Source: a virus
Length of the DNA stretch: 64,000 nucleotides
Virus record (IMG/VR): IMGVR_UViG_3300021090_000723
Location: 40,904-104,903 of that record
Strand: one strand, 5' to 3'
Of this stretch, positions 19,401-54,405 are shown one piece after another. Made by a program: the position numbers and the translations under genes. The stretch's first letter is position 1, and the number at the start of each line of letters is the position of its first letter. The notes under the pieces are model-generated. The model searched no databases. It was given only the letters and a program-made list of their open reading frames with translations, and was not told the DNA's origin.

Positions 19401-22400
19401 AGAGCGTGCCGTTGACGCTTGCGAGCAGGGCGCGCGCACTCTGACCGGCGGCCAGCAGCGCCTTCTTCTCGGCCTGGAGCGGCTTGACCTTGTCGGACAA
19501 CTCCATCGAGTTGATCGTGCCCTCGCGGTTCCGCTTCACCAGCGCCTCGATCTCCTTGTCGATCGCCGGGACCCGGACGCCGCCTGCGCGCAGGTTGAAG
19601 TCGAGCGCATGGCCCCATTCGTGCGACAGGGACCCGTCGCCCTTGGTCTTGGTCAGGTTGATGACGTTGGTGTCTGGCTCGTAGTGAGCGGAGCCGAACC
19701 CAGATCCGCGCGAGCCGAACGCCAGGCCCAGCTTACCGCCGATGGAGATTGCCTTCGCTGGCACACCCATTATCTCGGCGAAGTCCATGAGCGCGTCGTA
19801 GGCGGCGTTGACGTGCGCCTGGCCCTCGCGGCCGGTGACCCAGTTCCCGAACTCGACGCCGCGGAAGCCGAAGGTCTTGCGGAAGTCCTCGGCCTTGACG
19901 TTCTTGCCCGCCTTCCGGCGCTCGGGCAGGCCCGGGCGCGTGATGTCCTCGATCCGGATGCTCGGCCGCACGAGGGGCGTGGCGCGTGTCGGCATCGTGT
20001 TGTCGTCGCGGAAGTGGGGCAGGCCTTCGTCCAGGCGCCACAGGTTCGGCCACGAATAGTGGTGCAGGTACGGCCGCAACGTCTTCTGCGCCCAGTCCGT
20101 GGCGATGACGCGCGCCGACATGCCTTCCGGGCGCTGGACCTCTTTGACGATCAGGCGCTTGAGCGCGGCGTGGATGTCCTCGACGTTCTTCGCGCCGGCG
20201 AGCGCATCGCCCAGGATCTCCATCGCGCCGATGTATTCGGCGGCGTTCTCCAGGATGGTCTCGCGCTTCTCCTCCCAGCGCTTCTCCAGCGTCTTTCTGA
20301 ACGGCGTGCGCCATTTGCCACGGCCGCCGCCCTGGTTCTTACCCTCCTGCTCGGTGAAGGTGACGAACGAGCGGGAGACGAAGTCGGCGAAGACGTGGGC
20401 GCCGGTCGTGGCGTCAGCCGCCAGGCGGGAGCGGAGGTCCCGCGCGTCCAGAGCCTGCTCGAGCATCTTGTCCAGATCCTCGATCTTCTCGACCTTGGCT
20501 TTGGCCTGGGCGCGCTTGCCCGCCATGGCCTCGCCCACGTCCGTCATCTTCGGCATGGGCGCGCGGCGGTCGGTGACCGGCTTCCTTGGTTCTTTGACCG
20601 GCCTCTTCTCGGGCGCCTCGATTGTTTCACGTGAAACATCAACGGCCTGGGGCAGAATCGCGGTGGTCGTGTCGCCCTCTTCGATCCACCGTTTGAAGTC
20701 GGCCACGTTCATTTCGAGGCCGCCGTTCTTCCGGCGCTGCGGCCCCGAGCCGTCCGAGTACCCGGCGTCATAGACCGCGATGGCCTGCTCCGGGGTGTCG
20801 ACCGCGGCGATGGCCTTGTGCTCATCGAACTTGCCGGTCTTCGGATCGTACTGATCGATGACGAAGACCTTGTCGCTCTTCAGGTTCGGTCCGAGGTAAA
20901 TGTCCAGCTTTTCCTGCTGGTTAGGCGGGGCGTTCGGCTTCGCATCCGCACCGATCGAGCGCTTGATGTAGCCGTAGTCGGCCAGGATGTTGACGTTCGT
21001 CCAGATCGGCTTGCCGTCCTCGCCCTCGGGCCCAAGGCGATCCGTGCCCTTCGGCGTCTCGATAGTGATGTCCAGGCCGTTCCAGTTCTCGATGTGGCCC
21101 TTGGCGTAATTCCCAGCCTCGCGCTGCGCCTCGGTCGTCTCCTTGGCGACCGCGTCACGCGCCGGCTGGATGTCTTCCTCGGTCTCCGGACGCTTGACGG
21201 GGTTGGTCTTGGTGCCTTCCGGCGCCCGGGCGACGTGCTTGATCTTCGCAAGCTGCTCTTTGGCGCTGGCGATGAGGCCGAGGGCGTCCCGCTTCGCAGA
21301 GTCGGGCCAGCTGCCCGACATTGCCCGCTCGACATAGCTGGTCACATAGGCCTTGGCTTCGTCCAGCGTGGCGAATTCGTTCGCGTGCGAGCCGCCCATG
21401 CCGCCCGCTTGGCTGGTGATGTTGTACGAAATGCGCGGGACCGTGTAGCGGGCCTCCTGCGGGTCGTAGACGATCATAAACGCGAGGTTGCTGCTGCTCT
21501 TCTTCGCCTTGGCCGGGAGCAGTTTGCCGGTGTCGAGCACCACTTCGCCGCGCTCCATGACGGCCTCGTGCTCGTCCCGGGCGACCTTCTCGCGCGCCCT
21601 CCGGGCGTCGTGCTCGGCATCCTCGGCGGCGCGCTGGCTTTTGGCTTCCTTGGCGATCGTCGGCCACTTGTACTCAAGGTCGGACTGCTCGGCCTTCGCC
21701 TTCGCGATGTCCACTTTGTAGCGCTCGATCTGGCTCTTCCACGTGTCGAGGTTGATCTTGGATGGCTTCTTCGGTCCCGCCAGGGCCTCGTCCATGCGCT
21801 TCTGCGTCTCGGCCATGTTGTGCTGGTAGGCCGAGAGGTGGAATTCGCGCTGGCGGTAGTCGTCCAGATCCTGCGCCATCGGATGCTCGGGGGCTTCCGG
21901 CTGCTCGCGCTCCACCAGGTAGTCGCCAATGTCCTTGACCAGGTCCGGGAACTTCTTGCCGTACCACTCCAGGCGCAGGCCCTTGGCCGCGGCGCGCGCG
22001 GCGTAGATCGACTTGTCCCAGCCCGGCTCCGGGGTGAAGCGCTCTTCCTGCGCCTCTTCCTCGGCGCGATCGGCCTCCATCTGGACGATCTCGTCCGTGG
22101 TGGGCTCCATCACGTCTTCGCCGGACTTCTCGCCGGGCGCGAGTTCGCGCGCTGGCGGGGTTATGAGACCAGGCAGCGGCTCAACGGGACCTTCGCCTTC
22201 GCGTTGCGCCATGCGCCGGGCTTCATCGGCGCGCTCATCGGCAATGCGCGTTTCCAGCGCCGCGCGCATCAGCCCGGTTTTGGTGTCGTAGTTCCGGAGG
22301 ATGTGCTCCTGGAACACATCGGCGGCTTCCACGCCGAACGAGTCGGCATAGGCGCCCCACCAGTTCACGAATTCCTCAGGGGCGGCGGTGAAGGCCTCCT

Positions 22401-24762
22401 TGGCCTCTTTATCGAGCCGGTCCTTGGCCTTGGCGTTCTTCGGCGGCTTGCCGGTGGCGGGATCGTTGCCCGAGTCGATGTAGGCCTGCGCCGCGCGCAG
22501 CTGGTTGATGGGCTCTTCGAAGTGCCGCAACGCCTCATCGTGGAAGGCGCGCAGCGTTTCGGTGCGCTCTTCCGGCGTCTCGGCCGGGTTCTCGTCCCAG
22601 AAGCCGGGGCGTCCGGCTTCGCGCAGCGCTTCATCCGCAGGCTCGGGGAACGTCTTCTTGAAGTCGAAGGGCAGTCGTTTGCCGCTCGACTTCTTGCCCT
22701 TTTCCTTGGCGAGATCGGCGGCCTCGCGCTCGATCTGGGCCATTTCCGCCTCGACGTCCTGGGCGGGCTTGGTGCCCGGCACGGTGAACGTCTCCTTGGG
22801 CGGCGTCTCCCTGATCCATTCCTCACTAGGCTCACCTGGCGGCTGGGTGAGATCGGCGCGCTTGACGTCGCCGGTCTTCACGTTGTGCCAGCCGATCTGG
22901 TTGTCCTCTTCGTCGAAGAGCGCTTGCCAGTCCTTGCCACGGGGCTTGGGCGGCATTTCTGCCTTCGGCGGCTGGGTTGGTGGCTTGGGCGGTGGCTCTG
23001 GAGCCTGTTCGGCCGCACCCGCTGGCGGCTCTCCTGGCGCGCCTGGGCGCTCCATCGTGGGCTCGACGCGCGGCTTTTCCGGCTCGCCCTCGCCCCGGAC
23101 GAACGGGTGCGTGGCCGCCGCGATCGTGCCGCCCATCACGCCGCCGGTGAGGCCCGCGGCGATCACTGCGCGGGTGGCTTCACCGAACGTCATCTTCTCG
23201 TTCAGGATGCCCATGGAATAGCCGGTCTGGAGCACCTGGGTGAACATTTCCTGGATGCCTTCGGCGCCTGCCGCCTTGAGCGTGCGCGGCAGGAACTTCC
23301 CGCCCTCCTTGATGATGATCCCGAGCGGGATTTTCTCGCCGGCTGTTTCGGCGAAGGCCATGAACGCGCCGTCGAGCGCGGCCTGGGTGGGCGAGCGGCC
23401 GTTCTTGGCGGACTCGCTGTACTGCTCCAGGCCGACCTGGCTTCCCATCATGGCGAGGCCGATGGCCGGGCTTCTGGTCAGGATGGACGCGCCGACGGTC
23501 GCCAGCATGGGCACGCCGGACTCGATGGCGTTGAAGTAGACACCCTTGATGCTGAGTGGATCGAGGTCTTTCGGGGCGCTCTCCTCGAGATCCTTGAGCG
23601 CGGCGAAGGCGATCTTGCCGCCGATGGTGCTGCCAGCGTCCTTGACCGCCTTCTCGCGCGCGGCGAGCATGCCCTGGTACGCCTCTTCGACCTGTGGCGG
23701 CAGCTTGCCGGTGAACGGATTGACCTGTTCGATCGGATAAGGGACCGGGGCCTGGTCCATGGCGAGAATCGCGCCGCCGATCATGTTCTTCAGGTGCAGC
23801 GGCACGCGCTCGGCGGCCGCCATGGTCAGTTCACCGAAGCTGGGCCCGGGGTCCTTCTTGCCGATGCCCGCGATGAACGCGCGCGCCGCGCCGGCGCCGA
23901 CGCCTTCCACGTCGGGTTGCTCGATGGGCTTGAACGGCTTCTGTTTGGCCGCGAACGCCTCGGCGGCCGCGGGCGTCTCGAACTTGCCCATGTGCTGGCC
24001 GGTCTGCTTGTAGCGCTCGATGATCGCTTCGTCTGACTCGCCCTCGGTCAGCTGCGGGAGCACGGTCTCCTTGAAGATGCCGTTCTCCGTGAACTCGAAC
24101 GAGCGCGTGCCCGCAAAGTCGCCCTTGTAGTTGCCCGGTTCGAGCAGGCCCGGCTCCTGGCGCACGAAGTCCGGCTTGTCAGCGACCGCCTGCGGCGCAG
24201 CGGTGATCGGCTCTTCGGAAACGATCGCATACGGATCATCGCCGCCGGGCGGCGCAGCGGAGATCGCCGTCGGGTCGATCGGCTCTTCGGAAACGATGGC
24301 ATACGGGTCGTCCTGCGGCCCCTGAGACATTTGGACCACGCGCTGGACGTAGTCGTTCGTCTCCGGGAACGGGATCTGGGCGATGAACTCGGCTTCGCTG
24401 ATCTCGCCCTTGCGCGGATCGCCCAGGCGGTTGAGCCAGCCTTCGAGCGCGCCCGGGCCAGCGTTGTAGGCCGCACCCGCGAGCGCCGGGCTTCCATAGC
24501 GCTCAAGCATGGCGGCCGCATAGTCGACGCCTACGCGGTCAAGCTCTTCCGGAGTGTCGTTCGCCGCCGGGCGGACGCCAAAGCCCGGGTCCTTCGCGGT
24601 GCCCGGCATAACCTGCATTTCGGAGCGCGCGCCCTTGGGAGAGACCGCGTTGATCGGGCTCGCTTCCGCGCGCCGGATGATGCTGGGGAAATCGACAGGC
24701 GTGGGCGCGAGCCCTCCGCCGTCCATCGGTTCTTCCGAGACGACGTCCCATTCGTTGACCAT
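7462..24762 (-). CDS. Giant polyvalent virion ejection protein (5766 aa): SLT, InPase, LPD1, DarB-like N6-MTase plus SNF2 helicase, JAB-like, HExxH, LPD38
   Basis: AVSPKGA..MQVMPGTA/AAYNAGPG; EAGNYAKGH..FDEHK; FRGVEFGNW..HEWGH; LEPGMGIG/GNVPF; HLVGAGKT/DEAH/TGTPISN/QREGRIERQGN; HHNH..S..D; HEVIH; VNFNRRG..FYNASIQG. Confidence 0.92.
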   Translation of the reverse strand: MVNEWDVVSEEPMDGGGLAPTPVDFPSIIRRAEASPINAVSPKGARSEMQVMPGTAKDPGFGVRPAANDTPEELDRVGVDYAAAMLERYGSPALAGAAYNAGPGALEGWLNRLGDPRKGEISEAEFIAQIPFPETNDYVQRVVQMSQGPQDDPYAIVSEEPIDPTAISAAPPGGDDPYAIVSEEPITAAPQAVADKPDFVRQEPGLLEPGNYKGDFAGTRSFEFTENGIFKETVLPQLTEGESDEAIIERYKQTGQHMGKFETPAAAEAFAAKQKPFKPIEQPDVEGVGAGAARAFIAGIGKKDPGPSFGELTMAAAERVPLHLKNMIGGAILAMDQAPVPYPIEQVNPFTGKLPPQVEEAYQGMLAAREKAVKDAGSTIGGKIAFAALKDLEESAPKDLDPLSIKGVYFNAIESGVPMLATVGASILTRSPAIGLAMMGSQVGLEQYSESAKNGRSPTQAALDGAFMAFAETAGEKIPLGIIIKEGGKFLPRTLKAAGAEGIQEMFTQVLQTGYSMGILNEKMTFGEATRAVIAAGLTGGVMGGTIAAATHPFVRGEGEPEKPRVEPTMERPGAPGEPPAGAAEQAPEPPPKPPTQPPKAEMPPKPRGKDWQALFDEEDNQIGWHNVKTGDVKRADLTQPPGEPSEEWIRETPPKETFTVPGTKPAQDVEAEMAQIEREAADLAKEKGKKSSGKRLPFDFKKTFPEPADEALREAGRPGFWDENPAETPEERTETLRAFHDEALRHFEEPINQLRAAQAYIDSGNDPATGKPPKNAKAKDRLDKEAKEAFTAAPEEFVNWWGAYADSFGVEAADVFQEHILRNYDTKTGLMRAALETRIADERADEARRMAQREGEGPVEPLPGLITPPARELAPGEKSGEDVMEPTTDEIVQMEADRAEEEAQEERFTPEPGWDKSIYAARAAAKGLRLEWYGKKFPDLVKDIGDYLVEREQPEAPEHPMAQDLDDYRQREFHLSAYQHNMAETQKRMDEALAGPKKPSKINLDTWKSQIERYKVDIAKAKAEQSDLEYKWPTIAKEAKSQRAAEDAEHDARRAREKVARDEHEAVMERGEVVLDTGKLLPAKAKKSSSNLAFMIVYDPQEARYTVPRISYNITSQAGGMGGSHANEFATLDEAKAYVTSYVERAMSGSWPDSAKRDALGLIASAKEQLAKIKHVARAPEGTKTNPVKRPETEEDIQPARDAVAKETTEAQREAGNYAKGHIENWNGLDITIETPKGTDRLGPEGEDGKPIWTNVNILADYGYIKRSIGADAKPNAPPNQQEKLDIYLGPNLKSDKVFVIDQYDPKTGKFDEHKAIAAVDTPEQAIAVYDAGYSDGSGPQRRKNGGLEMNVADFKRWIEEGDTTTAILPQAVDVSRETIEAPEKRPVKEPRKPVTDRRAPMPKMTDVGEAMAGKRAQAKAKVEKIEDLDKMLEQALDARDLRSRLAADATTGAHVFADFVSRSFVTFTEQEGKNQGGGRGKWRTPFRKTLEKRWEEKRETILENAAEYIGAMEILGDALAGAKNVEDIHAALKRLIVKEVQRPEGMSARVIATDWAQKTLRPYLHHYSWPNLWRLDEGLPHFRDDNTMPTRATPLVRPSIRIEDITRPGLPERRKAGKNVKAEDFRKTFGFRGVEFGNWVTGREGQAHVNAAYDALMDFAEIMGVPAKAISIGGKLGLAFGSRGSGFGSAHYEPDTNVINLTKTKGDGSLSHEWGHALDFNLRAGGVRVPAIDKEIEALVKRNREGTINSMELSDKVKPLQAEKKALLAAGQSARALLASVNGTLSHTWDVEGAIKMVDNLLTGRSHIRGRQGLGPLKTAEQYVDHLWQNEGWSAKLTTKFKRNAQELGKYWVRPEELWARSFESFIYDELAAKGQTSPYLVNGWVAEGQTTKEAGYRGTPYPAEEERANFALMWRGLLDQLEWNEDGSLKEKTYTPLPDSKQAVEEALKKIDIPKRWAELEREKRAKGQPGKLPEQGGRAPAGAPTTGVRGPEGGGEAGAEGPGPIGIDSELGQQPTSASEPGRASGETDQAGAERPPDGGVGRPEGVSPDEREGSLGDRAKRGIRGLNFRIAEDADYATGSPAQRIVKNIEAIRVALDLEKGGQLASREDQEQLAHYVGWGATGLAKIFDEGRGLDYGLIPYREQLKAMLTPEQFASARATTINAHYTSQDVVRGIWDGVTELGFTGSGNVLEPGMGIGNFMGMRPKGSDPKFIGVELDDVTGKIARALYPEARIFVQGFEDTALPEDSVDLVIGNVPFGDIRPADKMYNKGRPLSLHNYFIFKSLKLVKPGGVLALVTSRYTMDSQDKTARTMIRDAGGDLIGAIRLPNTAFKENAGTQVVTDILFIRKRKEGEPAGKPDWLEAKEFRVGTSPATVNQYFKDNPNMILGTNAVTRGMYREDEYTVTGTATGLREKIANAVQAMMEKSALRFDPEAGDVDTYDDLAPPPDTVKDNAFFERDGKLFQRVLQSSVPVELSDGQAGRVRLLIRLRDKAREILTAQRGEWEGKGTAPWVAPQKELGKLYAQFVKAFGYINQVQISRRTMPDGEVREYRRYPNMLAFRDDPDAALVSALERFDEEKNEGIKGPIFTDRVVEPTREILRVNTPDEALIASMNMKGIVDVPYMAKILGRQPSTFLNELKGRIFKNPATGAYEPSEVYLSGNVRGKLAFARDAAKGEPEWAENVKALEVVQPVDLKPSQIAVRMGTPWIPNSDVEGFISELLETEAIVEYVPKEATWHVRIAQEGTAPNTQTWSVNWTTSRAEGKSIARRGIDLIRDALNQKSTVISWQDSEGKTHTDMNATIVAQEKQNDIKERFSKWIWKDPERGARLSRFYNDNFNNLRVATFNGDHLTLPGSSSTIELRSTQKKAVWRYLVSGNTLLDHLVGAGKTFTAIAAAMEAKRIGLLSKPLFSVPNHMLEQFSREFMQLYPNASILVADERAFAGDNRRRFVARAAAGNWDAIIMTHSSFERVGMSAKFQADYIRDEIAEYADLIRAARETDTGGRSPTVKQLEAAKKRREEKLRELMQAKDKDRGLSFEEMGVDGIFVDEAHLFKNLEFATKITNMNPPSSQRAFDLYLKTKYIDKMTPGRGLMFMTGTPISNSMAEMYTMQRYLQPRGLAERGLSHFDAWASTFGDTVTQAEITPEGGKAMLKTRFARFRNIPELISMYRQFSDLVSKDDLIATGQVKLPKISGGGPKTIIVPASDALKAYIAEIGERAEAVRKREVTPDEDNMLLISTDGRKASLDLRVVDPAARKEKVRKASEVASNAARIYKAGAKEKHTQIIFCDMSVPSNVAYSIYRDIKEELVKKGVNANDVAFVQDANTDQKKANLFADVRAGRKRILLGSTEKMGIGTNVQDRLKALHHVDPSWRPSDIEQREGRIERQGNTNEEIDLFRYVTEGSFDAYMWQTVERKARFINQIKRGDPSVREAEDIDEQVLSFAEAKALAAGNPLILDKAKADSDVDRLSRLRGAHYDNIHEMEWQIHRLPGEIAGMEEARGRVKADHAAYLERKDKPHYTILGTVYEKRVDASKALADIIEKAWNLQKSKNEAQGRKRNAEIEDIPIGKMYGFPISVEVDGYYQPQAVIHGKMTDKVELDLQSLKLGAISRIENFFKSRPGEIDYRQAKIDTAKKKLVDFKELVKVPFEREDQYQAALKRQRKIDQALGLIEADPQPVAGAPEPDLPPRRSAGFILSEAPGEGLGLAPPARPPRDEGMLARRIVEGNSDLADDLGKFVAKKKAKTPAAVNVAIGDWLRAFGERTKTEAAVAYDPATQTVIAAETSGKDTYVNLRGKIEDALSKPDARIVFHHNHTMPYGLSFADLTLLDLPGLDWMIAHTTEGQWHAARLTPETRRAFADLDLTLWSSPSDILNKMLQESQNAQGRVGRSLIRERGLDRNLAVANFSHNFAVGLARAGLIDYRSSVVVPESLAATFDTMAQAGAEAIASPLKAIGVVNVSDRGTAPTQFADGIAEILGEDQGLAVEPRGGAGEGARPEGVGRGLERLRLPQAPPVIETGDGVTFTFSPEFEAKREQLAADLRAYLVNRNLPLAVRVADAIADPEGHEADGHFDITKNLITIALDTKDPFGTITHEVIHGLRNLGFFTKSEWATLEAAAKDKWKRTFDIVGKYYKPDVQTEETIAFAAQNYEPSNEFAKAGLATKVLQRVRNFFEGLRNFFRGRGFQTPEDIFKRIESGRIGKRGKAGPTRSEAKFALKPQPPAPFFSTLARTIEASKQEKASGIQWQAFIKNARGITKDETEWTGVNEWLESQQGPVTKQALLDFIRENNVQIEEVEKGRAPGDDEGPYPENIEDWLPDEERTIQPEGQRYYSEMAFDADDASVTFHYDQRGVVTRVNAIRAGRELGDFGDFIEAREAIHRDAGIVAEGGATKFESQTLPGGENYRELLLTLPQIGVPFDPAKVRIERNRRSTTQGDVTVFYGDHKVGTWDDPIVLNSVTKKYEGPNDAHWIDVMRRRYPGDRSLAIDALSGQFRSGHFDEANILAHVRFKDRADADGKRVLFIEEIQSDWHQKGRRQGYSVKETRSPVFSIFDDQGELVGTRPTLDQAQEFIRDKHGRRPAWNRDDQAPMDTTNWTIKEGEAIEKRTGVPDAPFKSTWHEIALKRMLRYAAENGYDRLAWTTGAQQAERYNLAKHVNSLRLTDNVSGGIGRPRMDGPFERGHLIAYGKRNEEAINRQIESRDDLAELVGAELADKLLAVTPVEGRSAGLGVRVREISGLDLTVGGEGMKGFYDRIVPQFLNRYAKKWDAKVGTTKIDTGKESEPSWTVAETHPQKKQGVIDVHSLDVTPAMRESVMEGQGLFARRMPPGANAFTMFTDSPQPSVVDYLRNSNLSLMERLKGAASLSAINASFDKWRVGFQDRYLKVARMQAAIEQMLGRPLTEEENAYLAEELSSGRKGAKLEDLFERQIRPLVLAMHERGISREELETFLYARHAPERNARINEINPKFREEGIAGSGMSDEDARGIMDEVDKTGRRADFDALAGMVDDVLAFALNTRVEAGLMSEEQAEAWRATYRDYVPLRGVAELDPEVEADRPRPGKGFDVKGKESHRAFGRQSPARDILAYAFMQAEEAIIRGENNRIGNAIYELAKAAPNENFWKVDKVAMRPVWIKARQEVQYWPVRRILAEDAPYTLSTKIDGQEHRITFNRNNPVARDLAQGLKGLGQDQISLLIRNFGAINRILSHVNTTLNPEFVITNAFRDAQTALSNIQAHGDIKGITKGTVKDYRKALVASSRSAFKAEPGKTLMPWMAKDQAEWDRWAQEFRENGGRVYFNQMEDVLELRKRLDGQMREIGTSKLNPIMAMKTLGRIIENTNIGVENAIRLSAYKNARERGFTPAKAASLAKNLTVNFNRRGSWGPLMNSLYLFYNASIQGTATLLTAWKSPRVRKVAAFAVLTGFLLDFLNAFVSDEDDDGQLLYDKVTPFDKSRNLIVMTPSEGGVAAKIPLPYGYNIFYGVGRSIAEVMRGKDPLESAGNLAITIMDSFNPVGGAQNLLNMIAPTTMDPVVDLFMNKDYAGRPIAPEQSQYGPQVPNSQRYWNSVSPAYKAVTDFLSTASGGTGVEPGLIEISPEWLDYGFGVAWGAAGTFYERNFLDLPMKFADPTSTITFNDIPFVRRVVTSKPPWIDKATFYERINKIEQSRAYARDYQREGRRPEARGFVQENRAMLSLYNDANNARTELSEIRASRAQAKMALEQGRMARPRYNEQVRILNEAEERIIRMFNAEYLERTRRRP
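12717..12866 (-). CDS. Overprinted 49-aa ORF (MYLIEEPPPLSS...) in the +1 frame of the giant gene
   Basis: GGAG SD 6 nt upstream of ATG; helical protein-like sequence; the giant frame is a low-complexity linker here. Confidence 0.55.
   Translation of the reverse strand: MYLIEEPPPLSSPMALRRFLARTKDLPSSPEVEQARARAQKALEEALKD
18549..18860 (-). CDS. Overprinted ~103-aa TnpV-like ORF in the +1 frame of the giant gene
   Basis: AAGGG SD then GTG; HLRVHRPQEFAGLKAEGKL..MAESDALREYL resembles the TnpV pattern; the giant frame is a G/P/E linker here. Confidence 0.55.
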   Translation of the reverse strand: MQKVSPESYRSKVEGHLRVHRPQEFAGLKAEGKLEQRVQDLSESIANWVNSQLPQVSQDEPLERRIKLERSALLMAESDALREYLPMSEREASGIGPSGGYED

Positions 24763-27086: not shown

Positions 27087-28222
27087 TAGCGACGTCCTCC
27101 CTTGGTGCCTGAGGCGAGATAGCTCATCGGCTCTTTCGATTTGCGCGGGATGACGCGCGGAGATCCTGTGGTGTGGCGCGCGAGGCGCGAGCGCATCTTG
27201 TCGAGCTTGCGCGCGCCCGCCTCATTTGACCCGTTGCCGAGCCTCGCGACTGTCGCGGCGTCCATCACGTACTCGCCGGCGGAGAGCTTCGCATCGACGC
27301 TGTCGCTCTGGCCGTCGCCATCGCCCTGCACGAAACGATGCCCGGCGGCGGAATCGAAGGTGCCAGCGTTCGGCGGCATCCCGCCCTGGGCATCGCTGAT
27401 GCGCGCCTGCGAGAGCGCGCCACCATGGGCGAGGTTCAGCTGGTTGTTGTTGAAGAACTGCGGCTGCGCCTGCGTGCCGTAGGAATACCAGTCGTTCGAG
27501 ACCGGCTGATAGTTCTGGACCGGCGTCCGACTGATGTAGCCCGATTGCAGCGGCTTGTCGAAATAGGGCCCGCGTGTCGCGGCCGTGGTCTCAGGCCCAG
27601 GCATACCGCTGTAGTCCGGCTTGCCGCCCGCCGACAGCGCGCCGCCGAGCAGGTTCACGAGCCCCTTGCCCATGTTGAAGCCCTTGCCCTTGCCGTCCTC
27701 GCCCTTGGTCAGGCCCATGACGTTGCCGATGTCCGAGAGGAAGCCGCCTTGCGTCTTCCCGCCGCCACCACCACTCCAGTCGTCGATACCGAGGTCGAGC
27801 GGGTTGAAGCCGGGGCCGCTACTGAGTGCGCCGGCCGGGTTGCTGCCACTGCCGAACCCGCCAGCGCCCGGGATGTAGTTCCCGTCAGCGCCCATGGTGG
27901 CCTGACCGTACAGCCCCATGGCCCCCATCGTCTCCGGGAAGAAGTGGCTCGCGCCGCCCAGCGCGCCGCCGCCAAGACCGCCATAGAGCGCACCCTTGCC
28001 AACGTCGCCGCCAGACACCGCGGAAGATAGCGCGCCCACGCCTGCGCCGATCAAGGCAGGGGCGGCAACGCTCCCGATGATGCCTGCGGTCGCCGCGCCG
28101 ACACCGGCGCCGGCCAGCGCCGAGGTGATACCACCGGCGATGAGGATCGAGAGCCCGAAATGGCACTCCCGCTTCGTCTTTGCGAGCCACCGTTCTTCAT
28201 GTTCGTACTCGTGCCTCAGCAT
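27086..28222 (-). CDS. Gly-rich ejection protein
   Basis: N-terminal Gly/Ala hydrophobic helices; C-terminal GDGDGQSDSVDAKLSAGEYV motif. Confidence 0.7.
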   Translation of the reverse strand: MLRHEYEHEERWLAKTKRECHFGLSILIAGGITSALAGAGVGAATAGIIGSVAAPALIGAGVGALSSAVSGGDVGKGALYGGLGGGALGGASHFFPETMGAMGLYGQATMGADGNYIPGAGGFGSGSNPAGALSSGPGFNPLDLGIDDWSGGGGGKTQGGFLSDIGNVMGLTKGEDGKGKGFNMGKGLVNLLGGALSAGGKPDYSGMPGPETTAATRGPYFDKPLQSGYISRTPVQNYQPVSNDWYSYGTQAQPQFFNNNQLNLAHGGALSQARISDAQGGMPPNAGTFDSAAGHRFVQGDGDGQSDSVDAKLSAGEYVMDAATVARLGNGSNEAGARKLDKMRSRLARHTTGSPRVIPRKSKEPMSYLASGTKGGRR

Positions 28223-29022
28223 TTGACGATCTCGAGCTTTCCGCTGACGAGACGGATCAGTCCGACATCCATGCGGATGGTCGGCGGATCTAGCGTCACG
28301 AGTTCGATGGTCTTGTGCCGGGCTACCTGGGCCCAGCGATTGTACAATGAGACCGCCTTGGGCAACTGGCCGCCGATCATCATTTCAGTGCACGCGCCGA
28401 CGATGCGGTTGTGGTCCAGGTCTTCCTCGTGCGGCGGCTCCGTGATTCCGATCTTCTTGGCCTGTTCGCGCATTTCCGCATGGGTGCGCGCGCCGATCTG
28501 CTCCAGCATTTGGTCCTTCTGGACCCAGTCCTGAATGGTGATCGCGTAGAGATCGATGGGCGTGACCTGGCCCATGAAGCGGCTTCCGTCGGGCCGTGTC
28601 AGTTCGAACTTCATGCCCGCCGCGACCGAGAGGGTGCGCGCGGCCTGGTGTCCGTGCGGCACGCGGGTGACGACCTCGCAGGCGTCGGTGTTGCAGAACA
28701 TCCAGCGCAGGACGGCCTTGGCCATCGAGAGCGCCCAGGGCCCGCGCCCCTCAGGCCGCACGAGCGTGTGGACCTCGTAGAGAGCCGGCGTGAGCTTCAA
28801 GAGCATGCACCCGCCGTGCTCGCCCAAGAGCAGCACGTTGCTCTCGTTCCTGACCTGACCGGTGAGATCCAGCACGCCCTCGTCCGGATCGGCGATGAAC
28901 GGGCGGATGTCTGGATGGTTGGCGAGCTCGTTCAGGCGCTTCGCCGCAAAGGAGCGCAAGACCTCGACCATGGGCCTTTGGGTCCGCGCGATCGGCGGCT
29001 CTTCCTTGCGCGAGGTCTTCAA
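28216..29022 (-). CDS. GNAT-like virion assembly protein (P22 gp14/DUF2824-like)
   Basis: LYEVHT..PEGRG..WMF pattern; precedes the ejection genes. Confidence 0.65.
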   Translation of the reverse strand: MKTSRKEEPPIARTQRPMVEVLRSFAAKRLNELANHPDIRPFIADPDEGVLDLTGQVRNESNVLLLGEHGGCMLLKLTPALYEVHTLVRPEGRGPWALSMAKAVLRWMFCNTDACEVVTRVPHGHQAARTLSVAAGMKFELTRPDGSRFMGQVTPIDLYAITIQDWVQKDQMLEQIGARTHAEMREQAKKIGITEPPHEEDLDHNRIVGACTEMMIGGQLPKAVSLYNRWAQVARHKTIELVTLDPPTIRMDVGLIRLVSGKLEIVKC

Positions 29023-29192: not shown

Positions 29193-29265
29193 GCTGAGGG
29201 GGGAGACGACGGACGGAAAGTCGGAACTGCGCATGCGGCTCTCACCCAAGATGGTGCGGCGGTTA

Positions 29266-29312
29266 GACCAACCGCCAGCGGGAGAGCACGCCGACGCAGA
29301 ACGCGGAGCATA
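29266..29312 (-). promoter_or_regulatory. -10 plus conserved 5' hairpin motif (copy 2)
   Basis: TATGCT followed by GTCGGCG-loop-CGCTGGC. Confidence 0.5.
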
Positions 29313-29337: not shown

Positions 29338-29412
29338 TGGCAGCTGCTGAGGGAGTCGAACCCTACGTCCCCGGAGTCAAAGTCCGGTGCCCTACCGTTA
29401 GACCAAGCAGCC
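29338..29412 (-). tRNA. tRNA-Gln(TTG)
   Basis: Cloverleaf; loop CTTTGAC; CCA encoded. Confidence 0.92.
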
Positions 29413-29413
29413 G

Positions 29414-29489
29414 TGGCGCGCCCAGGGGGAGTCGAACCCTCCGTTTGCCGATTGAGAATCGGCGTTCCTGACCGTTAGAAGATGGGCGC
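29414..29489 (-). tRNA. tRNA-Glu(CTC)
   Basis: Loop TTCTCAA; CCA encoded. Confidence 0.92.
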
Positions 29490-29491
29490 AT

Positions 29492-29565
29492 TGGCGCAGC
29501 TGCGGGGAATCGAACCCCGGTTGTCGGAGTGAAAATCCGCTCTCCGGCCACTAGAGGACAGCTGC
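29492..29565 (-). tRNA. tRNA-Glu(TTC)
   Basis: Loop TTTTCAC; CCA encoded. Confidence 0.92.
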
Positions 29566-29568
29566 GAT

Positions 29569-29642
29569 TGGCGAGGGTGCGACGAATCGAACGCCGGTCA
29601 TCGGGTTTGGAAGCCGAGGCCCTACCACTGGGCGACACCCCC
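29569..29642 (-). tRNA. tRNA-Trp(CCA)
   Basis: Loop TTCCAAA; G73; C31-C39 mismatch. Confidence 0.85.
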
Positions 29643-29647
29643 TGAAG

Positions 29648-29721
29648 TGGTGCGGACGGAGAGGATCGAACTCTCACCCCCGGGTTGGAAGCCCGGTACT
29701 CTGCCGTAGAGCTACGTCCGC
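29648..29721 (-). tRNA. tRNA-Gly(TCC)
   Basis: Loop CTTCCAA; A73; CCA encoded. Confidence 0.92.
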
Positions 29722-29722
29722 G

Positions 29723-29793
29723 TGCGGGTCGCCGGAATCGAACCGGCATCAGCGGAGTGGCACTCCGCGGCCCAGCCAATAGACCAGACCCGC
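29723..29793 (-). tRNA. tRNA-Gly(GCC)
   Basis: Loop GTGCCAC; no encoded CCA. Confidence 0.88.
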
Positions 29794-29798
29794 AAAAA

Positions 29799-29873
29799 TG
29801 GACATGCGCGCCGGAATCGAACCGGCTCATCGCGATTTTGCAGACCGCCGCGTTCCCACCTCGCCCGCGCATG
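29799..29873 (-). tRNA. tRNA-Cys(GCA)
   Basis: Loop CTGCAAA; U73; CCA encoded. Confidence 0.9.
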
Positions 29874-29916
29874 CAAGCATCCAGTTCAGTTTGCGAAATT
29901 TCGATATTTCGATATT

Positions 29917-29990
29917 TGGCGACCCCACATGGATTTGAACCACGATTTCCAGAGTCAGAGTCTGGCGGCCTACCGTTGGCCGATGGAGCC
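29917..29990 (-). tRNA. tRNA-Gln(CTG)
   Basis: Loop CTCTGAC; CCA encoded. Confidence 0.92.
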
Positions 29991-29997
29991 TTGGAAA

Positions 29998-30074
29998 TGG
30001 TTGCGGGGGTCGGAATCGAACCGACGACGCCTGCGCCTTCAACGCAGCGCTCTACCGGACTGAGCTACCCCGCC
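29998..30074 (-). tRNA. tRNA-Phe(GAA)
   Basis: Loop TTGAAGG; CCA encoded. Confidence 0.92.
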
Positions 30075-30092
30075 AAGAGGCAGCGCGTTGGC

Positions 30093-30140
30093 TTATCGCC
30101 AACAACCTCGTTCGGGAAATCGTTGCTGTCGATTGAGCAT
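30093..30140 (-). CDS. Leader peptide D, MLNRQQRFPERGCWR (precedes the Phe/Gln/Cys/Gly/Trp/Glu tRNAs)
   Basis: Codons match the downstream tRNAs; 4 CGA; TAA lies in the loop of the GTTGGC/GCCAAC hairpin. Confidence 0.75.
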   Translation of the reverse strand: MLNRQQRFPERGCWR

Positions 30141-30145
30141 GCCAA

Positions 30146-30220
30146 TGGCTGCGGAGGACGGGCTCGAACCGCCGACCTCGCACTTAACAGGCGCTCGCTC
30201 TACCACTGAGCTACTCCGCA
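30146..30220 (-). tRNA. tRNA-Asn(GTT)
   Basis: Loop CTGTTAA; G73; CCA encoded. Confidence 0.92.
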
Positions 30221-30263
30221 CTGCCGTCTCCATTGGTTGGCCCACCAGGTGGGCGAGGCGCCG

Positions 30264-30292
30264 GTTTTGTCAACCGGGCCCCGAAATGTCAA
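30264..30292 (-). promoter_or_regulatory. Putative sigma70 promoter for the Asn/leader D block
   Basis: Two TTGACA hexamers (30292-30287 and 30273-30268); weak -10. Confidence 0.45.
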
Positions 30293-30305
30293 GCAGAGTG
30301 TAAAG

Positions 30306-30381
30306 TGGCGTCCCCGGTAGGAATCGAACCCACGTCTGGCCGGATTAGAAGTCCGGTGCCTTTCCGCTAGGCTACGGGGAC
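30306..30381 (-). tRNA. tRNA-Arg(TCT)
   Basis: Loop CTTCTAA; CCA encoded. Confidence 0.92.
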
Positions 30382-30383
30382 GT

Positions 30384-30458
30384 TGGAGGACCAGGCGGGG
30401 CTCGAACCCGCAACCGTTCGATTAAAAGTCGACTGCACCACCATCGTGCTGCTGGTCC
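30384..30458 (-). tRNA. tRNA-Lys(TTT)
   Basis: Loop CTTTTAA; CCA encoded. Confidence 0.9.
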
Positions 30459-30459
30459 G

Positions 30460-30531
30460 TGAACCGGGTGGGACTTGAACCCACAACCATCGGATTAAGA
30501 GTCCGCCGCACCACCATCGTGCTGCCGGTTC
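30460..30531 (-). tRNA. tRNA-Lys(CTT)
   Basis: Loop CTCTTAA; no encoded CCA. Confidence 0.88.
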
Positions 30532-30562
30532 AAAACGATCGCCGACTATAGTCGGCGGAAGT

Positions 30563-30637
30563 TGGCGTGCGCGGAGGGAGTCGAACCCACAGCTTCCAGA
30601 TTCGTAATCTGGCGCTCTTCCGTTGAGCTTCGCGCAC
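30563..30637 (-). tRNA. tRNA-Arg(ACG)
   Basis: Loop TTACGAA; CCA encoded. Confidence 0.92.
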
Positions 30638-30641
30638 AAAC

Positions 30642-30716
30642 TGGCGTTCCCGGGTGGATTCGAACCACCGCCCTTCAGATCCGGAATCTGACGCTCCTCC
30701 GCTGAGCCACGGGAAC
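30642..30716 (-). tRNA. tRNA-Arg(CCG)
   Basis: Loop TTCCGGA; CCA encoded. Confidence 0.92.
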
Positions 30717-30746
30717 AAGTCAAAAATCGCCACATCTGACGTAAAC

Positions 30747-30821
30747 TGGCGCGCGTTAGGGGTATCGAACCCCTGACCTTCCGGTTGACAACCGGGTGCT
30801 CTCCCTCTGAGCTAAACGCGC
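30747..30821 (-). tRNA. tRNA-Asp(GTC)
   Basis: Loop TTGTCAA; G73; CCA encoded. Confidence 0.92.
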
Positions 30822-30825
30822 AGTC

Positions 30826-30902
30826 TGGTCGCAGGGGCTGGGATCGAACCAGCGCATGACGCCCTTATGAGGGGCGGGCCTTTCCAGCTTGGCTACCCTG
30901 CG
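30826..30902 (-). tRNA. tRNA-Met(CAT), elongator (Ile2 not excluded)
   Basis: Loop CTCATAA; positions 1 and 72 paired. Confidence 0.85.
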
Positions 30903-30974
30903 TCGTTCTGGATGGTCTCGAACCACCGTCCTCACGATTATCGGTCGCGCGCTCTACCACTGAGCTACAGAACG
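30903..30974 (-). tRNA. tRNA-Ile(GAT)
   Basis: Loop CCGATAA (C33); no encoded CCA; abuts tRNA-Met. Confidence 0.88.
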
Positions 30975-30978
30975 TCAT

Positions 30979-31053
30979 TGGTACGCGCAGAGGGGATCGA
31001 ACCCACCGTTTCCGGGTCCACAACCCAGCGTCCTTCCATTGGACGATGCGCGC
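30979..31053 (-). tRNA. tRNA-His(GTG), type lacking G-1
   Basis: Loop TTGTGGA; G1-U72; A73; C at position -1. Confidence 0.9.
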
Positions 31054-31057
31054 GAAT

Positions 31058-31134
31058 TGGTCTGAGCGGCAGGATTCGAACCTGCGTGTACCTGGTCCCA
31101 AACCAGGTGCGTGACCAGGCTACGCTACGCTCAG
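31058..31134 (-). tRNA. tRNA-Pro(TGG)
   Basis: Loop TTTGGGA; CCA encoded. Confidence 0.92.
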
Positions 31135-31139
31135 GAAAA

Positions 31140-31216
31140 TGGTCGCCCCTGCACGGAATCGAACCTGCGACCTCCCGGGTGTAGGCCGGGCACTCTACCA
31201 GCTGAGCTAAGGGGCG
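31140..31216 (-). tRNA. tRNA-Val(TAC)
   Basis: Loop CCTACAC (C33); CCA encoded. Confidence 0.9.
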
Positions 31217-31268
31217 GCGCGGTGAACGGGGGAGCGGGCGTGGGCCCGCGGTGAGGGACGAGGTCGCC

Positions 31269-31346
31269 TTAGGCGACGACTATCCTATGCGGTCGAATGG
31301 ACATTCGCCGCTTTCTTGGATCTCGTGGTTTGAGAACCGTGCTCAT
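31269..31346 (-). CDS. Leader peptide C, MSTVLKPRDPRKRRMSIRPHRIVVA (precedes the Val/Pro/His/Ile/Met/Asp/Arg/Lys tRNAs)
   Basis: Codons match the downstream tRNAs; TAA forms the loop of GTCGCC/GGCGAC; promoter directly upstream. Confidence 0.8.
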   Translation of the reverse strand: MSTVLKPRDPRKRRMSIRPHRIVVA

Positions 31347-31354
31347 GGCCGGGG

Positions 31355-31383
31355 TGTATGACGGATCATCTTGTTGTCGTCAA
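31355..31383 (-). promoter_or_regulatory. sigma70-like promoter for leader C
   Basis: TTGACG-17nt-CATACA, 8 nt before the ATG (near-leaderless). Confidence 0.6.
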
Positions 31384-31391
31384 CAACGTGA

Positions 31392-31478
31392 TGGTCGGAG
31401 CGGAGGGATTCGAACCCTCTAGCCGCAAGCGGACCGGATTTACAGTCCGGCGCAACCCACCGTCTTTGCCGCGCTCCG
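31392..31478 (-). tRNA. tRNA-Tyr(GTA)
   Basis: Loop CTGTAAA; long variable arm; CCA encoded. Confidence 0.92.
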
Positions 31479-31514
31479 TATATCAAACAGGCCGTTTCGG
31501 TATACGTTTGAGAT

Positions 31515-31596
31515 TGGTAGGCCCGGAGAGATTTGAACTCTCACGCCGAGGCGCCTGCTTCTGAGGCAGGTGTGTCTGCCGTTCCACCACGGGCCC
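31515..31596 (-). tRNA. tRNA-Leu(CAG)
   Basis: Loop CTCAGAA; CCA encoded. Confidence 0.92.
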
Positions 31597-31598
31597 AC

Positions 31599-31675
31599 TG
31601 GTAGGCGCGGAGAGACTCGAACTCTCAGATGTCGGGATTTAACGCCGATGCGTCTGCCGATTCCGCCACGCGCCC
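31599..31675 (-). tRNA. tRNA-Leu(TAA) with a short variable region
   Basis: Loop GTTAAAT; Leu-type D arm; A73; 5-nt variable loop. Confidence 0.82.
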
Positions 31676-31682
31676 GAGAAGC

Positions 31683-31724
31683 TCAGGCAAGTCGTAAGGT
31701 GCGGTATCGTAGGTTCGTGCGCAT
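31683..31724 (-). CDS. Leader peptide B, MRTNLRYRTLRLA (precedes the Leu/Leu/Tyr tRNAs)
   Basis: GAAGGA SD; CTA, TAC, TTA and CTT codons; 2 CGA. Confidence 0.72.
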   Translation of the reverse strand: MRTNLRYRTLRLA

Positions 31725-31734
31725 GCGATCCTTC

Positions 31735-31763
31735 TTGCATTTCCCCGCGCGGCTGTCTACAGA
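31735..31763 (+). promoter_or_regulatory. sigma70-like promoter for leader A (in the divergent region)
   Basis: TTGCAT-17nt-TACAGA, 9 nt before the ATG. Confidence 0.55.
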
Positions 31764-31772
31764 GCGGCCACC

Positions 31773-31835
31773 ATGTTCCGAACGCGAACCACTCGAGCGG
31801 CACGAGCCGCAACACGATCAAGTTCCTCTTCCTGA
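31773..31835 (+). CDS. Leader peptide A, MFRTRTTRAARAATRSSSSS (precedes the Ser/Ser/Ala/Thr tRNAs)
   Basis: All four Thr codons, three Ala codons and four Ser codons are sampled; 5 CGA; stop lies 3 nt before tRNA-Ser. Confidence 0.82.
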   Translation: MFRTRTTRAARAATRSSSSS

Positions 31836-31838
31836 TAC

Positions 31839-31926
31839 GGAAGGGTGGCAGAGTGGTTTATTGCGGCGCACTGCTAACGCGCCGGACCTGAAGGTCCCGT
31901 AGGTTCGAATCCTATCCCTTCCGCCA
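31839..31926 (+). tRNA. tRNA-Ser(GCT)
   Basis: Loop CTGCTAA; long variable arm; G73; CCA encoded. Confidence 0.93.
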
Positions 31927-31931
31927 ATCTC

Positions 31932-32020
31932 GGATGGGTCCGCTGCGTGGGCGGCAACCGGCTTCGAATACCGGCATGGGGTCCGTCAGGGCAGGGGTTC
32001 AACTCCTCACCCATCCGCCA
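31932..32020 (+). tRNA. tRNA-Ser(CGA), atypical (possible 8/4 fold)
   Basis: Loop TTCGAAT; GGATGGGT/ACCCATCC acceptor; long variable region; G73; CCA encoded. Confidence 0.75.
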
Positions 32021-32039
32021 ATCTTCCAGATCAGGATAA

Positions 32040-32114
32040 GGGCTCGTAGCTCAGCGGGAGAGCACCGGCTTTGCATACCGGGTGTCGTGGGTTCGATTCC
32101 CACCGGGTCCACCA
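32040..32114 (+). tRNA. tRNA-Ala(TGC)
   Basis: G3-U70; loop TTTGCAT; CCA encoded. Confidence 0.93.
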
Positions 32115-32124
32115 GTTTGGAAAT

Positions 32125-32201
32125 GCCGGCGTAGCTCAGATGGTAGAGCAGTGTCTTTGTAATTCACAGGTCGCGGGTTCGAGTCCTCGCCGCCGGCTCC
32201 A
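32125..32201 (+). tRNA. tRNA-Thr(TGT)
   Basis: Anticodon TGT; CCA encoded. Confidence 0.92.
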
Positions 32202-32205
32202 AACC

Positions 32206-32526
32206 TCACCCGAGGGTGCAGATCGTGAATCGACCGCGCTTCGAGAACAGCTGCTTGGTCGCGTCCGTGTACCGCAGCTGGACGTGCCAGTTACCGGCTT
32301 GATCGAGTTGTCCGATGGTGAAGGTGTAGGTCACATACTCGTTGGGGAGGAACGTGCCGACCTCCGTCACGATTTCGAGCGCGCCCAGTTCCACGGCGGG
32401 GTTGGTCACCACCAGCGTGGTGTTGTCCGGCTTGGTGAAGGTGAGTTCGAGCCCGGTGAAGGCTGACATATCGTAGCCGACACCGAAGCGGATCTGGACG
32501 CCGAAACTACCAACGAAAATGGTCAT
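32206..32526 (-). CDS. BppU-N/Ig-like virion protein
   Basis: FTKPD..YTF..LDQAGNW.VQL pattern. Confidence 0.7.
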   Translation of the reverse strand: MTIFVGSFGVQIRFGVGYDMSAFTGLELTFTKPDNTTLVVTNPAVELGALEIVTEVGTFLPNEYVTYTFTIGQLDQAGNWHVQLRYTDATKQLFSKRGRFTICTLG

Positions 32527-47403: not shown

Positions 47404-48327
47404 TCAGCTGTTGAAGGCCGCGCCGTTCACCAGGCCGGCTGCATCGTAGTTGCCGGTGAAGATGACGTTCGGCTGGCCGCTGATGTCGAACTGAGCCGCG
47501 ATCAGGGCCGCATCGGCGAAGAAGTTTCCGCAGATGAGAGCCGAGTTCGCCGCCAGATCGCCCGCAGCGCCCTGGTCCATGTCCGCGTAGACGAACGCCG
47601 CCCCGACGGTCATGAAATAGTTCGCCGCGATCAGCGTATTGAGGAAGATGCCCGCGCCGCCGCCCGAGACGTTGACCAGCGACTGGAGATCCACGGCGTT
47701 GCCGACGAAGCGGTTGCCGATGACCCTGTTGTCGGTGGTGCCCACGCCCGATGGATTCGCCGCGTGCTGGAACGCCAGCCCGTAGCCCGCCGCGTTGCCC
47801 CGGAACAGGTTGCCCTGGATGAGGCCCTCGGATGCGGTGTAGCCGTCATCCGCTGCGAGGCCGACCAGGCGCAGGAGCGCTTCGGTGGCGCCTTGACCGT
47901 CACCGTCGAACACGCAGCCAGTGTACTCGAAGCCGTTGCCGTTCTGCTGGACAACGTCCGAATCCGCCGAAGAGAGGCGGAGATTGCGGGCGATGAAGCC
48001 TTGGGCCTCGACTTTGAGGGTCACGCCCGCGCTCGCGACCAAGTCCGGCTTGCCGTAGCCCGACAGGTTCGCGCCCATGATCGTGATGTAGTCCTTGGTG
48101 ATGACCAAGTTCTCGTCGTACTCGCCGGGGAAGACGAAGATGGTGTCGCCGGGGCGCGCGGAATCGTAGGCGTTCTGGATGGCTGGGAACGGTTCGGCAG
48201 GGCTGATGCCCGTGCCGGCCGCCGAGCCGTTTACGAACCAGACCTTGCCGTTGACGCTCGGGATCGAGACCCCTGGTGTCAGGAGCGGCATGCCTGCTCC
48301 GAAAACCATGTCTGAAAAGCTCGTCAT
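47404..48327 (-). CDS. Right-handed beta-helix (pectin-lyase-like) head decoration or spike protein
   Basis: G.SP..PF..IQ.A...A.PGDTI.V.PGEY.E; Asn ladders. Confidence 0.75.
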   Translation of the reverse strand: MTSFSDMVFGAGMPLLTPGVSIPSVNGKVWFVNGSAAGTGISPAEPFPAIQNAYDSARPGDTIFVFPGEYDENLVITKDYITIMGANLSGYGKPDLVASAGVTLKVEAQGFIARNLRLSSADSDVVQQNGNGFEYTGCVFDGDGQGATEALLRLVGLAADDGYTASEGLIQGNLFRGNAAGYGLAFQHAANPSGVGTTDNRVIGNRFVGNAVDLQSLVNVSGGGAGIFLNTLIAANYFMTVGAAFVYADMDQGAAGDLAANSALICGNFFADAALIAAQFDISGQPNVIFTGNYDAAGLVNGAAFNS

Positions 48328-54328: not shown

Positions 54329-54405
54329 TGGTTGCGCAGGAGGGATTTGAACCCCCGACCTTCAGCTTATGAGGCTGACGAGCTACCGGGCTGCTCCACC
54401 GCGCC
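54329..54405 (-). tRNA. Initiator-like tRNA-Met(CAT)
   Basis: GAGCAGCCCGGTAGCTCGTC D arm; 1-72 mismatch; loop CTCATAA; CCA encoded. Confidence 0.88.

Follow-up and report, generated by a model that had tools for sequence, protein, structure and literature searches.

The 64,000-nt window analysed here (positions 40,904 to 104,903 of the IMG/VR virus record IMGVR_UViG_3300021090_000723; 104.9 kb, approximately 88 % complete, 64 % G+C) carries a tRNA array at 29338-32201, located in the virion gene module. The array comprises 28 tRNA genes covering all 20 amino acids, 24 on the minus strand and four on the plus strand. Four of the spacers that head tRNA blocks hold short ATG-initiated open reading frames (ORFs), termed leaders A to D, and the stop codon of each lies in a small hairpin. 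These four hairpins had been listed in a preliminary description of the DNA; all were recovered, in sequence and in position, each with the stop codon of a short ORF.

31773-31835, plus strand: leader ORF A, 20 codons, MFRTRTTRAARAATRSSSSS; followed by the Ser-Ser-Ala-Thr block, with Ser, Ala and Thr making up 13 of 19 residues.
31826-31845, plus strand: hairpin A, CTCTTCC/TGATAC/GGAAGGG, 7 bp (one G-U), 6-nt loop, -8.3 kcal/mol.
31839-31926, plus strand: tRNA-Ser(GCT), first gene of block A.
31683-31724, minus strand: leader ORF B, 13 codons, MRTNLRYRTLRLA; followed by the Leu-Leu-Tyr block; AAGGA 5 nt 5' of the ATG.
31672-31688, minus strand: hairpin B, GCCTGAG/CTT/CTCGGGC, 7 bp (one G-U), loop CTT, -9.3 kcal/mol.
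31599-31675, minus strand: tRNA-Leu(TAA), first gene of block B.
31269-31346, minus strand: leader ORF C, 25 codons, MSTVLKPRDPRKRRMSIRPHRIVVA; followed by the Val-Pro-His-Ile-Met-Asp-Arg-Arg-Lys-Lys-Arg block.
31263-31277, minus strand: hairpin C, GTCGCC/TAA/GGCGAC, a perfect 6-bp palindrome with the stop TAA as loop; local fold z -3.8.
31140-31216, minus strand: tRNA-Val(TAC), first gene of block C; unpaired with the leader in the folds.
30093-30140, minus strand: leader ORF D, 15 codons, MLNRQQRFPERGCWR; between tRNA-Asn and the Phe-Gln-Cys-Gly-Gly-Trp-Glu-Glu-Gln block.
30087-30103, minus strand: hairpin D, GTTGGC/GATAA/GCCAAC, 6 bp (7 with a G-U), loop holding the stop TAA, -8.5 kcal/mol.
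29998-30074, minus strand: tRNA-Phe(GAA), first gene of block D.

Each of the four hairpins was present in the local minimum-free-energy fold; the local fold of D was no better than that of shuffled sequences (z -0.5). In hairpin A the loop opens with the stop TGA, and nucleotides 1-7 of tRNA-Ser(GCT) make up the 3' arm. In hairpin B the TGA is part of the 5' arm instead of the loop, and nucleotides 1-4 of tRNA-Leu(TAA) form the end of the 3' arm. Hairpin C does not touch tRNA-Val, nor does stop hairpin D touch tRNA-Phe. The 5' arm lies in the last sense codons of leaders A (Ser TCT TCC), C (GTC (Val) GCC) and D, and in the last sense codon plus stop of leader B; such a hairpin would therefore form only while no ribosome covers the last few codons or the stop. 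Two further hairpins were observed behind the stops of C and D.

31234-31249, minus strand: hairpin C2, GCGGGC/CCAC/GCCCGC, inside a C-rich tract, -8.1 kcal/mol.
30064-30084, minus strand: hairpin D2, leader tail GCTGCCTC paired with nucleotides 4-11 of tRNA-Phe, 8 bp (two G-U), -11.6 kcal/mol.

D2 had been missed in the preliminary description. As it reaches into tRNA-Phe, three leader tails, not two, can contact the first tRNA of their block.

Hairpins are strongly enriched between the tRNA genes. Counting stems of at least 6 bp with loops of 3-6 nt in the long spacers of the array yielded 13 hairpins, versus 2.5 +/- 1.6 in 500 dinucleotide shuffles, an approximately five-fold excess that none of the shuffles reached (0 of 500). 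The long spacers thus hold 15 hairpins per kb and the remaining window about 5, and 22 % of the spacer bases lie under hairpins. All four leader stops are located inside hairpins, compared with three of 16 other stop triplets (rough P 0.002-0.015).

The reading frames themselves are far from random. Every leader contains all amino acids of its own block, with 8/8 for leader C, where 19 of 24 residues belong to the block set, and 6/6 for leader D. In a cross-matrix of leaders and blocks, the fraction of in-set residues peaked for the own block. The probability of full coverage, conditioned on an open frame of the same length, was 0.35, 0.05, 0.016 and 0.0002 for A to D in comparison to all genomic frames (product 6e-8), and 0.61, 0.17, 0.09 and 0.001 in comparison to shuffles of each ORF's own bases (product 1e-5); for leader D it lies at 0.0002-0.001. 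The triplet CGA occurs 14 times in frame in the leaders and once in each other frame (P 1.2e-5), five of the in-frame codons residing in leader A, while CGA provides only 7 % of the arginine codons across the phage genes. The statistical non-randomness of the ORFs makes a translation-linked role plausible, and from the coding signal we infer that the four are codon-structured and probably translated. The lone tRNA-Met gene at 54329-54405 has no leader ORF. Some CGA codons take part in local structures: leaders C and D have CGA pairs in both arms of small hairpins within the ORF (CGAAT/ATTCG and AATCG/CGATT), and in leader A one CGA lies within the loop of GCGGC/ACGA/GCCGC.

These statistics bear on the simplest explanation, a chance overlap of short palindromes and short ORFs in G+C-rich spacers with nothing regulated. 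We regard coincidence as highly improbable: it is opposed jointly by the enrichment of hairpins, the placement of the stops, the amino-acid inventory and the in-frame CGA codons, and also by the lack of cognate leaders in an unrelated phage array used as control (L082). A chance origin would fit the single locus without relatives that carry the array, the short stems, the z of -0.5 for the local fold of D and the promoters unsupported by a scan.

The four stop hairpins are not classical intrinsic terminators, because the stems have 6-7 bp and a U-tract is missing. This bears out two points of the preliminary description, the absence of U-tracts and the conclusion drawn from it: the tails after the stems, TGGCAGAG, GCGTGGCG, CTCGTCCC and GCGCTGCC, contain no T-run, and the stem energies amount to about -8 to -9 kcal/mol (A, B, D). 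In none of the four leaders did a terminator scan and inspection of the tails reveal an intrinsic terminator between the leader and the first gene. A mutually exclusive antiterminator pairing was not found; the local folds are successive independent hairpins, without alternative pairings overlapping the stop hairpins of C and D. The geometry, with the 5' arm in the ORF and the stop in the loop, is shared with a leader in the phage phiCbK, whose stop before tRNA-Glu/Asp sits in the loop of an annotated U-tract terminator. Weak, U-less intrinsic terminators blocked by a ribosome on the last codons, a reduced form of the coupling attenuators of pyrBI or phiCbK type, would have the same layout. 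Such terminators are very unlikely at this locus: besides the short stems and the lack of U-tracts after any of the four, the other terminator-like hairpins of the phage (59876-59902, 59975-60004, 54422-54443) have stems of 9-11 bp and T-containing tails, and the only two terminator-like hairpins with T-runs in the array (30557-30540 and 30741-30728, minus strand) are both located in ORF-less spacers. Positioned behind Asp and behind Arg(ACG), the latter two divide block C and could govern the proportions of the distal tRNAs.

Termination by Rho requires no U-tract. Rut sites, the C-rich loading sites of Rho, have more C than G and little structure and work best with 60-90 nt, while about 30 nt can suffice; in tnaC, speFL and cruR, ribosomes held at the stops of upstream ORFs (uORFs) shield neighbouring Rut sites (PMC12360218). 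A candidate tract follows hairpin C.

31217-31262, minus strand: C-rich tract between hairpin C and tRNA-Val, 46 nt with 27 C, 10 G, 6 T and 3 A (59 % C).

In an attenuation of the tnaC/speFL type, the stop hairpin would pause the polymerase and a stalled ribosome would shield the C-rich RNA from Rho, while a quick release of the ribosome would expose the RNA and cause termination before or within the first tRNA. The position of the tract directly after a stop hairpin and the C over G bias of leader RNAs A, B and C are in line with this mode, which has the uORF precedents mentioned; the C/G ratios were 1.64 for A, 2.0 for B, 1.56 for C (2.23 for its tail) and 1.19 for D, with 1.59 as 95th percentile of 66-nt windows. 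We nevertheless judge Rho-dependent attenuation to be unlikely. Only 3 and 7 nt separate stop and tRNA in A and B, leader D is not C-rich, and a third of the tract (16 nt) folds into hairpin C2 of about -8 kcal/mol. The preliminary description had likened the tract to a rut site, and its C-rich composition agrees with that comparison; the likeness is confined to leader C and diminished by the part taken up by C2.

The overlap of hairpins A and B with the tRNA 5' ends directs attention to the folding of the precursor. Each leader was folded together with its entire first tRNA, with shuffled leaders, shuffled 30-nt tails and tRNA swaps as controls. Folded alone, each first tRNA formed its acceptor stem. 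In the joint folds the 5' strand of the acceptor stem paired with the leader with a probability of 1.00 in A, 0.98 in B, 0.00 in C and 0.73 in D. The observed capture was reached by about 1 % of the shuffled leaders for A, 10 % for B and 25 % for D. When the tails were combined with all 28 tRNAs, the cognate tRNA ranked first for A, third for B, 27th for C and first for D. In these models A alone appears clearly above the composition background for acceptor capture. A sequestration of the first tRNA, proposed earlier for A and B, thus gains for leader A, which surpasses about 99 % of the shuffled leaders; for leader B it is weak and largely an effect of composition.

A ribosome was then represented as a mask that began 15 nt 5' of the A-site codon and extended to 11 nt 3' of the first base of this codon; the remaining RNA was refolded. 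With the mask at Ser codons 17-19 of leader A, the acceptor stem of tRNA-Ser was predicted to form with P 0.85-0.99; at the last Ser codon or the stop, the mask itself covers the first tRNA bases. Since the 5' arm of hairpin A is made of the Ser codons themselves, slow reading of these codons would favour maturation of tRNA-Ser. The earlier proposal of a ribosome-controlled folding that governs access of RNase P is consistent with the fold models for A; B gave a weak response, and C and D lent it no support. In this modelling, block A makes a credible case for a folding switch gated by the ribosome, block B a weak one, and blocks C and D none.

We tentatively favour, at somewhat less than an even chance, a reading of the four stem-loops as RNA elements at the 3' ends of codon-structured leader ORFs that act as ribosome-sensitive gates. 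Any effect on processing, pausing or termination would differ between the blocks. In A, and less so in B, the 3' arm is the 5' strand of the tRNA acceptor stem, and forming the hairpin would come at the expense of tRNA folding and of cleavage by RNase P. With a ribosome held up at the Ser run of leader A, tRNA-Ser would be able to fold, and slow reading of these codons would raise the amount of mature tRNA. The stop hairpins of C and D might act as pause or coupling elements, possibly in conjunction with Rho on the C-rich RNA that follows. A more specific form seems doubtful to us: translation would gate tRNA maturation, with the stop hairpins as the output. A ribosome waiting for a scarce tRNA on the last leader codons would hold the hairpin open, allowing the first tRNA to fold and to be cut by RNase P, and a fast finish would let the leader clamp the tRNA 5' end. 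In a phage with tRNAs for all 20 amino acids, this would imply a feedback on tRNA supply through precursor folding and not through transcription termination. No single mechanism fits all four hairpins.

Several observations weigh against ribosome-sensitive gates. The distance from stop to tRNA is 3, 7, 52 and 18 nt in A to D, without a common geometry. Masking recovered the acceptor stem of B only in part (up to 0.60) and changed nothing in D, because the clamping hairpin D2 lies beyond the reach of a ribosome on the leader; in C there is nothing to release and the model is irrelevant. Acceptor-strand pairing exists in the sequence, and much of it can be put down to the encounter of C-rich leaders with tRNA 5' ends rich in G: 81 % of the shuffled leaders of B and 45 % of those of D captured the acceptor strand at all, and shuffled 30-nt tails gave P values of 0.17, 0.05, 0.51 and 0.08 for A to D (combined 0.04). 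Unrestricted long-range duplexes between leader and tRNA were not cognate-specific (ranks 6, 3, 28 and 18 of 28). A rut-like tract is present behind leader C only, short and partly folded. Among the four leaders, B alone has a Shine-Dalgarno-like motif, and a promoter scan scored no sigma-70-type promoter. The association of stops with hairpins may be partly trivial, because stop triplets, rare in RNA of about 60 % G+C, favour A/T-rich loops. Finally, spacers without a leader ORF carry hairpins of the same type (30540-30557, 30261-30277, 30240-30254 and 29258-29276); the first precedes tRNA-Lys(CTT), the next two precede tRNA-Asn, and the fourth follows the last tRNA.

30540-30557, minus strand: leaderless-spacer hairpin, CGCCGAC/TATA/GTCGGCG followed by ATCGTTTT, terminator-like; spacer between tRNA-Arg(ACG) and tRNA-Lys(CTT); z -4.4.
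30240-30277, minus strand: two Asn-spacer hairpins, CCGGTT/GACAA/AACCGG and GCCCAC/CTG/GTGGGC; 85-nt spacer; no leader stop inside.

The leaderless hairpins, together with an enrichment that belongs to all spacers and an acceptor pairing that is mostly composition, point to a serious rival, a generic punctuation of a polycistronic pre-tRNA. The spacer stem-loops would serve processing, stability towards exonucleases or insulation of the tRNA folds, and the leader stops would fall into their A/T-rich loops only because stop triplets have few other positions open to them. Generic punctuation is possible, if still on the doubtful side. It does not explain why leader stops lie in hairpins in four of four cases and other stop triplets in three of 16, why the 5' arms of A and C are codons cognate to the first tRNA, why amino-acid coverage and CGA usage are so strongly frame-specific, and why tRNA capture by leader A exceeds that of about 99 % of the shuffles.

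Three details of the same regions are recorded here. TTGNNN hexamers are found 37-40 nt 5' of the ATG of leaders A (TTGCAT) and C (TTGACG) and of an ATG before tRNA-Asn (TTGACA); the promoter scan scored none of them. The ATG in the Asn spacer (30221-30305, minus strand) and that of leader A share a GGCC(A)ACC(A)ATG-like context, and the ORF starting in the Asn spacer reads in frame through tRNA-Asn into leader D. A 9-bp pairing of leader A with the D-arm of tRNA-Ser was dropped as a candidate, since long-range duplexes were not cognate-specific.

The comparative searches add a further point on the opposing side: tRNA scans of all 29 IMG/VR loci and of 15 of the 41 metagenome loci of relatives revealed no array. 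Homologues of the neighbouring head-morphogenesis-like protein exist, among them P0002, P0004, P0005 and P0008 with 59-71 % identity, one of which is encoded on a contig of 103.7 kb. The genes flanking the array are the following.

28216-29022: head-morphogenesis-like gene, phrog_651, flanking the array on one side.
32206-32526: gene of a 106-aa protein, flanking the array on the other side.

The closest relative with readable DNA (L031) encodes a neighbouring protein of 84 % identity and has kept both flanking genes, with a 264-aa ORF (L031, 8766-9560) in place of the 2.9-kb array. As this locus and the other scanned relatives lack it, the array is lineage-specific, and the different content between the same flanking genes in L031 points to an array that was gained or lost recently in the virion module. 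A whole-record tRNA search in 23 viral records yielded at most one tRNA each, single-protein scans of IMG/VR with both flanking genes gave no match, and no cultured relatives were found. Four DNA pattern scans, two for Val-Pro(-His) anticodon arms and loops and one each for an odd Lys D-arm and for the Ser-Ser-Ala loops, retrieved chance matches only.

Comparison with Rfam matched only tRNAs above gathering scores. The tRNA-Val(TAC) at 31140-31216 (minus strand) has a C directly 5' of the anticodon (loop CCTACAC), in contrast to the near-universal U. Several array tRNAs have C1 as first base (Val, Pro, Tyr, Met, Ile, Cys), and three are without an encoded CCA end. The 43-nt spacer before tRNA-Cys (29874-29916, minus strand) is A/T-rich, unlike the other spacers, and contains ATATCGAA twice, as a direct repeat, as well as CGAAATTTCG, a palindrome of 10 bp. 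Outside the array, one uninterrupted reading frame of 5766 codons occupies 7462-24762 (minus strand) and lies upstream of the genes for the tape-measure-like and head-morphogenesis-like proteins.

If the leaders gate their tRNAs, phages could sense a depletion of the host tRNA pool directly, e.g., after the action of tRNA-cutting defences, and answer with their own tRNAs. The locus raises the question whether regulation would act on precursor folding and the access of RNase P, on pausing, or through Rho. The cassette of leader A and tRNA-Ser is small and yields a clear testable prediction.

Leader-peptide switches are textbook knowledge for amino-acid operons. A literature search retrieved no paper on leader-peptide control of tRNA genes. 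The leaders resemble the trp and his attenuators in having a short ORF with codons cognate to the downstream products, and the hairpin at the ORF end resembles the I:II pause hairpin of the trp leader, which synchronises ribosome and RNA polymerase (PMC1183508); here, melting by a translating ribosome is predicted. Unlike trp and his, a III:IV terminator with U-tract and a mutually exclusive antiterminator were not found, the controlled genes are tRNAs and not biosynthetic enzymes, and the regulatory codons form a mixed inventory and not a run, with the exception of the Ser run in A. With tnaC, speFL, cruR and mgtL (PMC12360218) the locus shares a short ORF beside C-rich RNA that needs no intrinsic terminator; it differs in that a distinct C-rich tract after the stop is found only in C, whereas A and B run straight into the tRNA.

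The Caulobacter phage phiCbK (JX100813) offers a parallel among phages. In its deposited annotation, tRNA blocks are immediately preceded by rho-independent terminators. A 20-codon ORF at 48081-48143 (L079:882-944) precedes tRNA-Glu/Asp, contains Glu and Asp, and has its UAA in the apical loop of an annotated terminator with U-tract; gp083 at 49540-49677 (L079:2341-2478), annotated as hypothetical protein, comprises 45 aa, about half of them P, K, L or S, and precedes the Pro/Lys/Leu/Ser tRNAs. Common to both phages are a small ORF with the amino acids of the block before a tRNA block and a leader stop in a hairpin loop; hairpin-borne leader stops ahead of tRNA blocks are therefore found in an unrelated phage as well and are not unique to the array. 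The hairpins of phiCbK are long terminators and have U-tracts, in contrast to the U-less stems of 6-7 bp observed here, two of which use the 5' end of the tRNA itself as 3' arm, and the loci have no sequence relationship. For the maturation step, hairpins designed into the 5' leader are able to control cleavage by RNase P in E. coli, as outlined in PMC8925977: as predicted for leader A, an alternative pairing of leader and acceptor junction decides on maturation by RNase P. The switches outlined there are synthetic and ligand-driven, while the effector proposed here would be the ribosome, and the 5' strand of the acceptor stem itself would be hidden. Taken together, we would class the locus as a putative variant of leader-peptide control that lacks intrinsic terminators and acts on tRNA genes.

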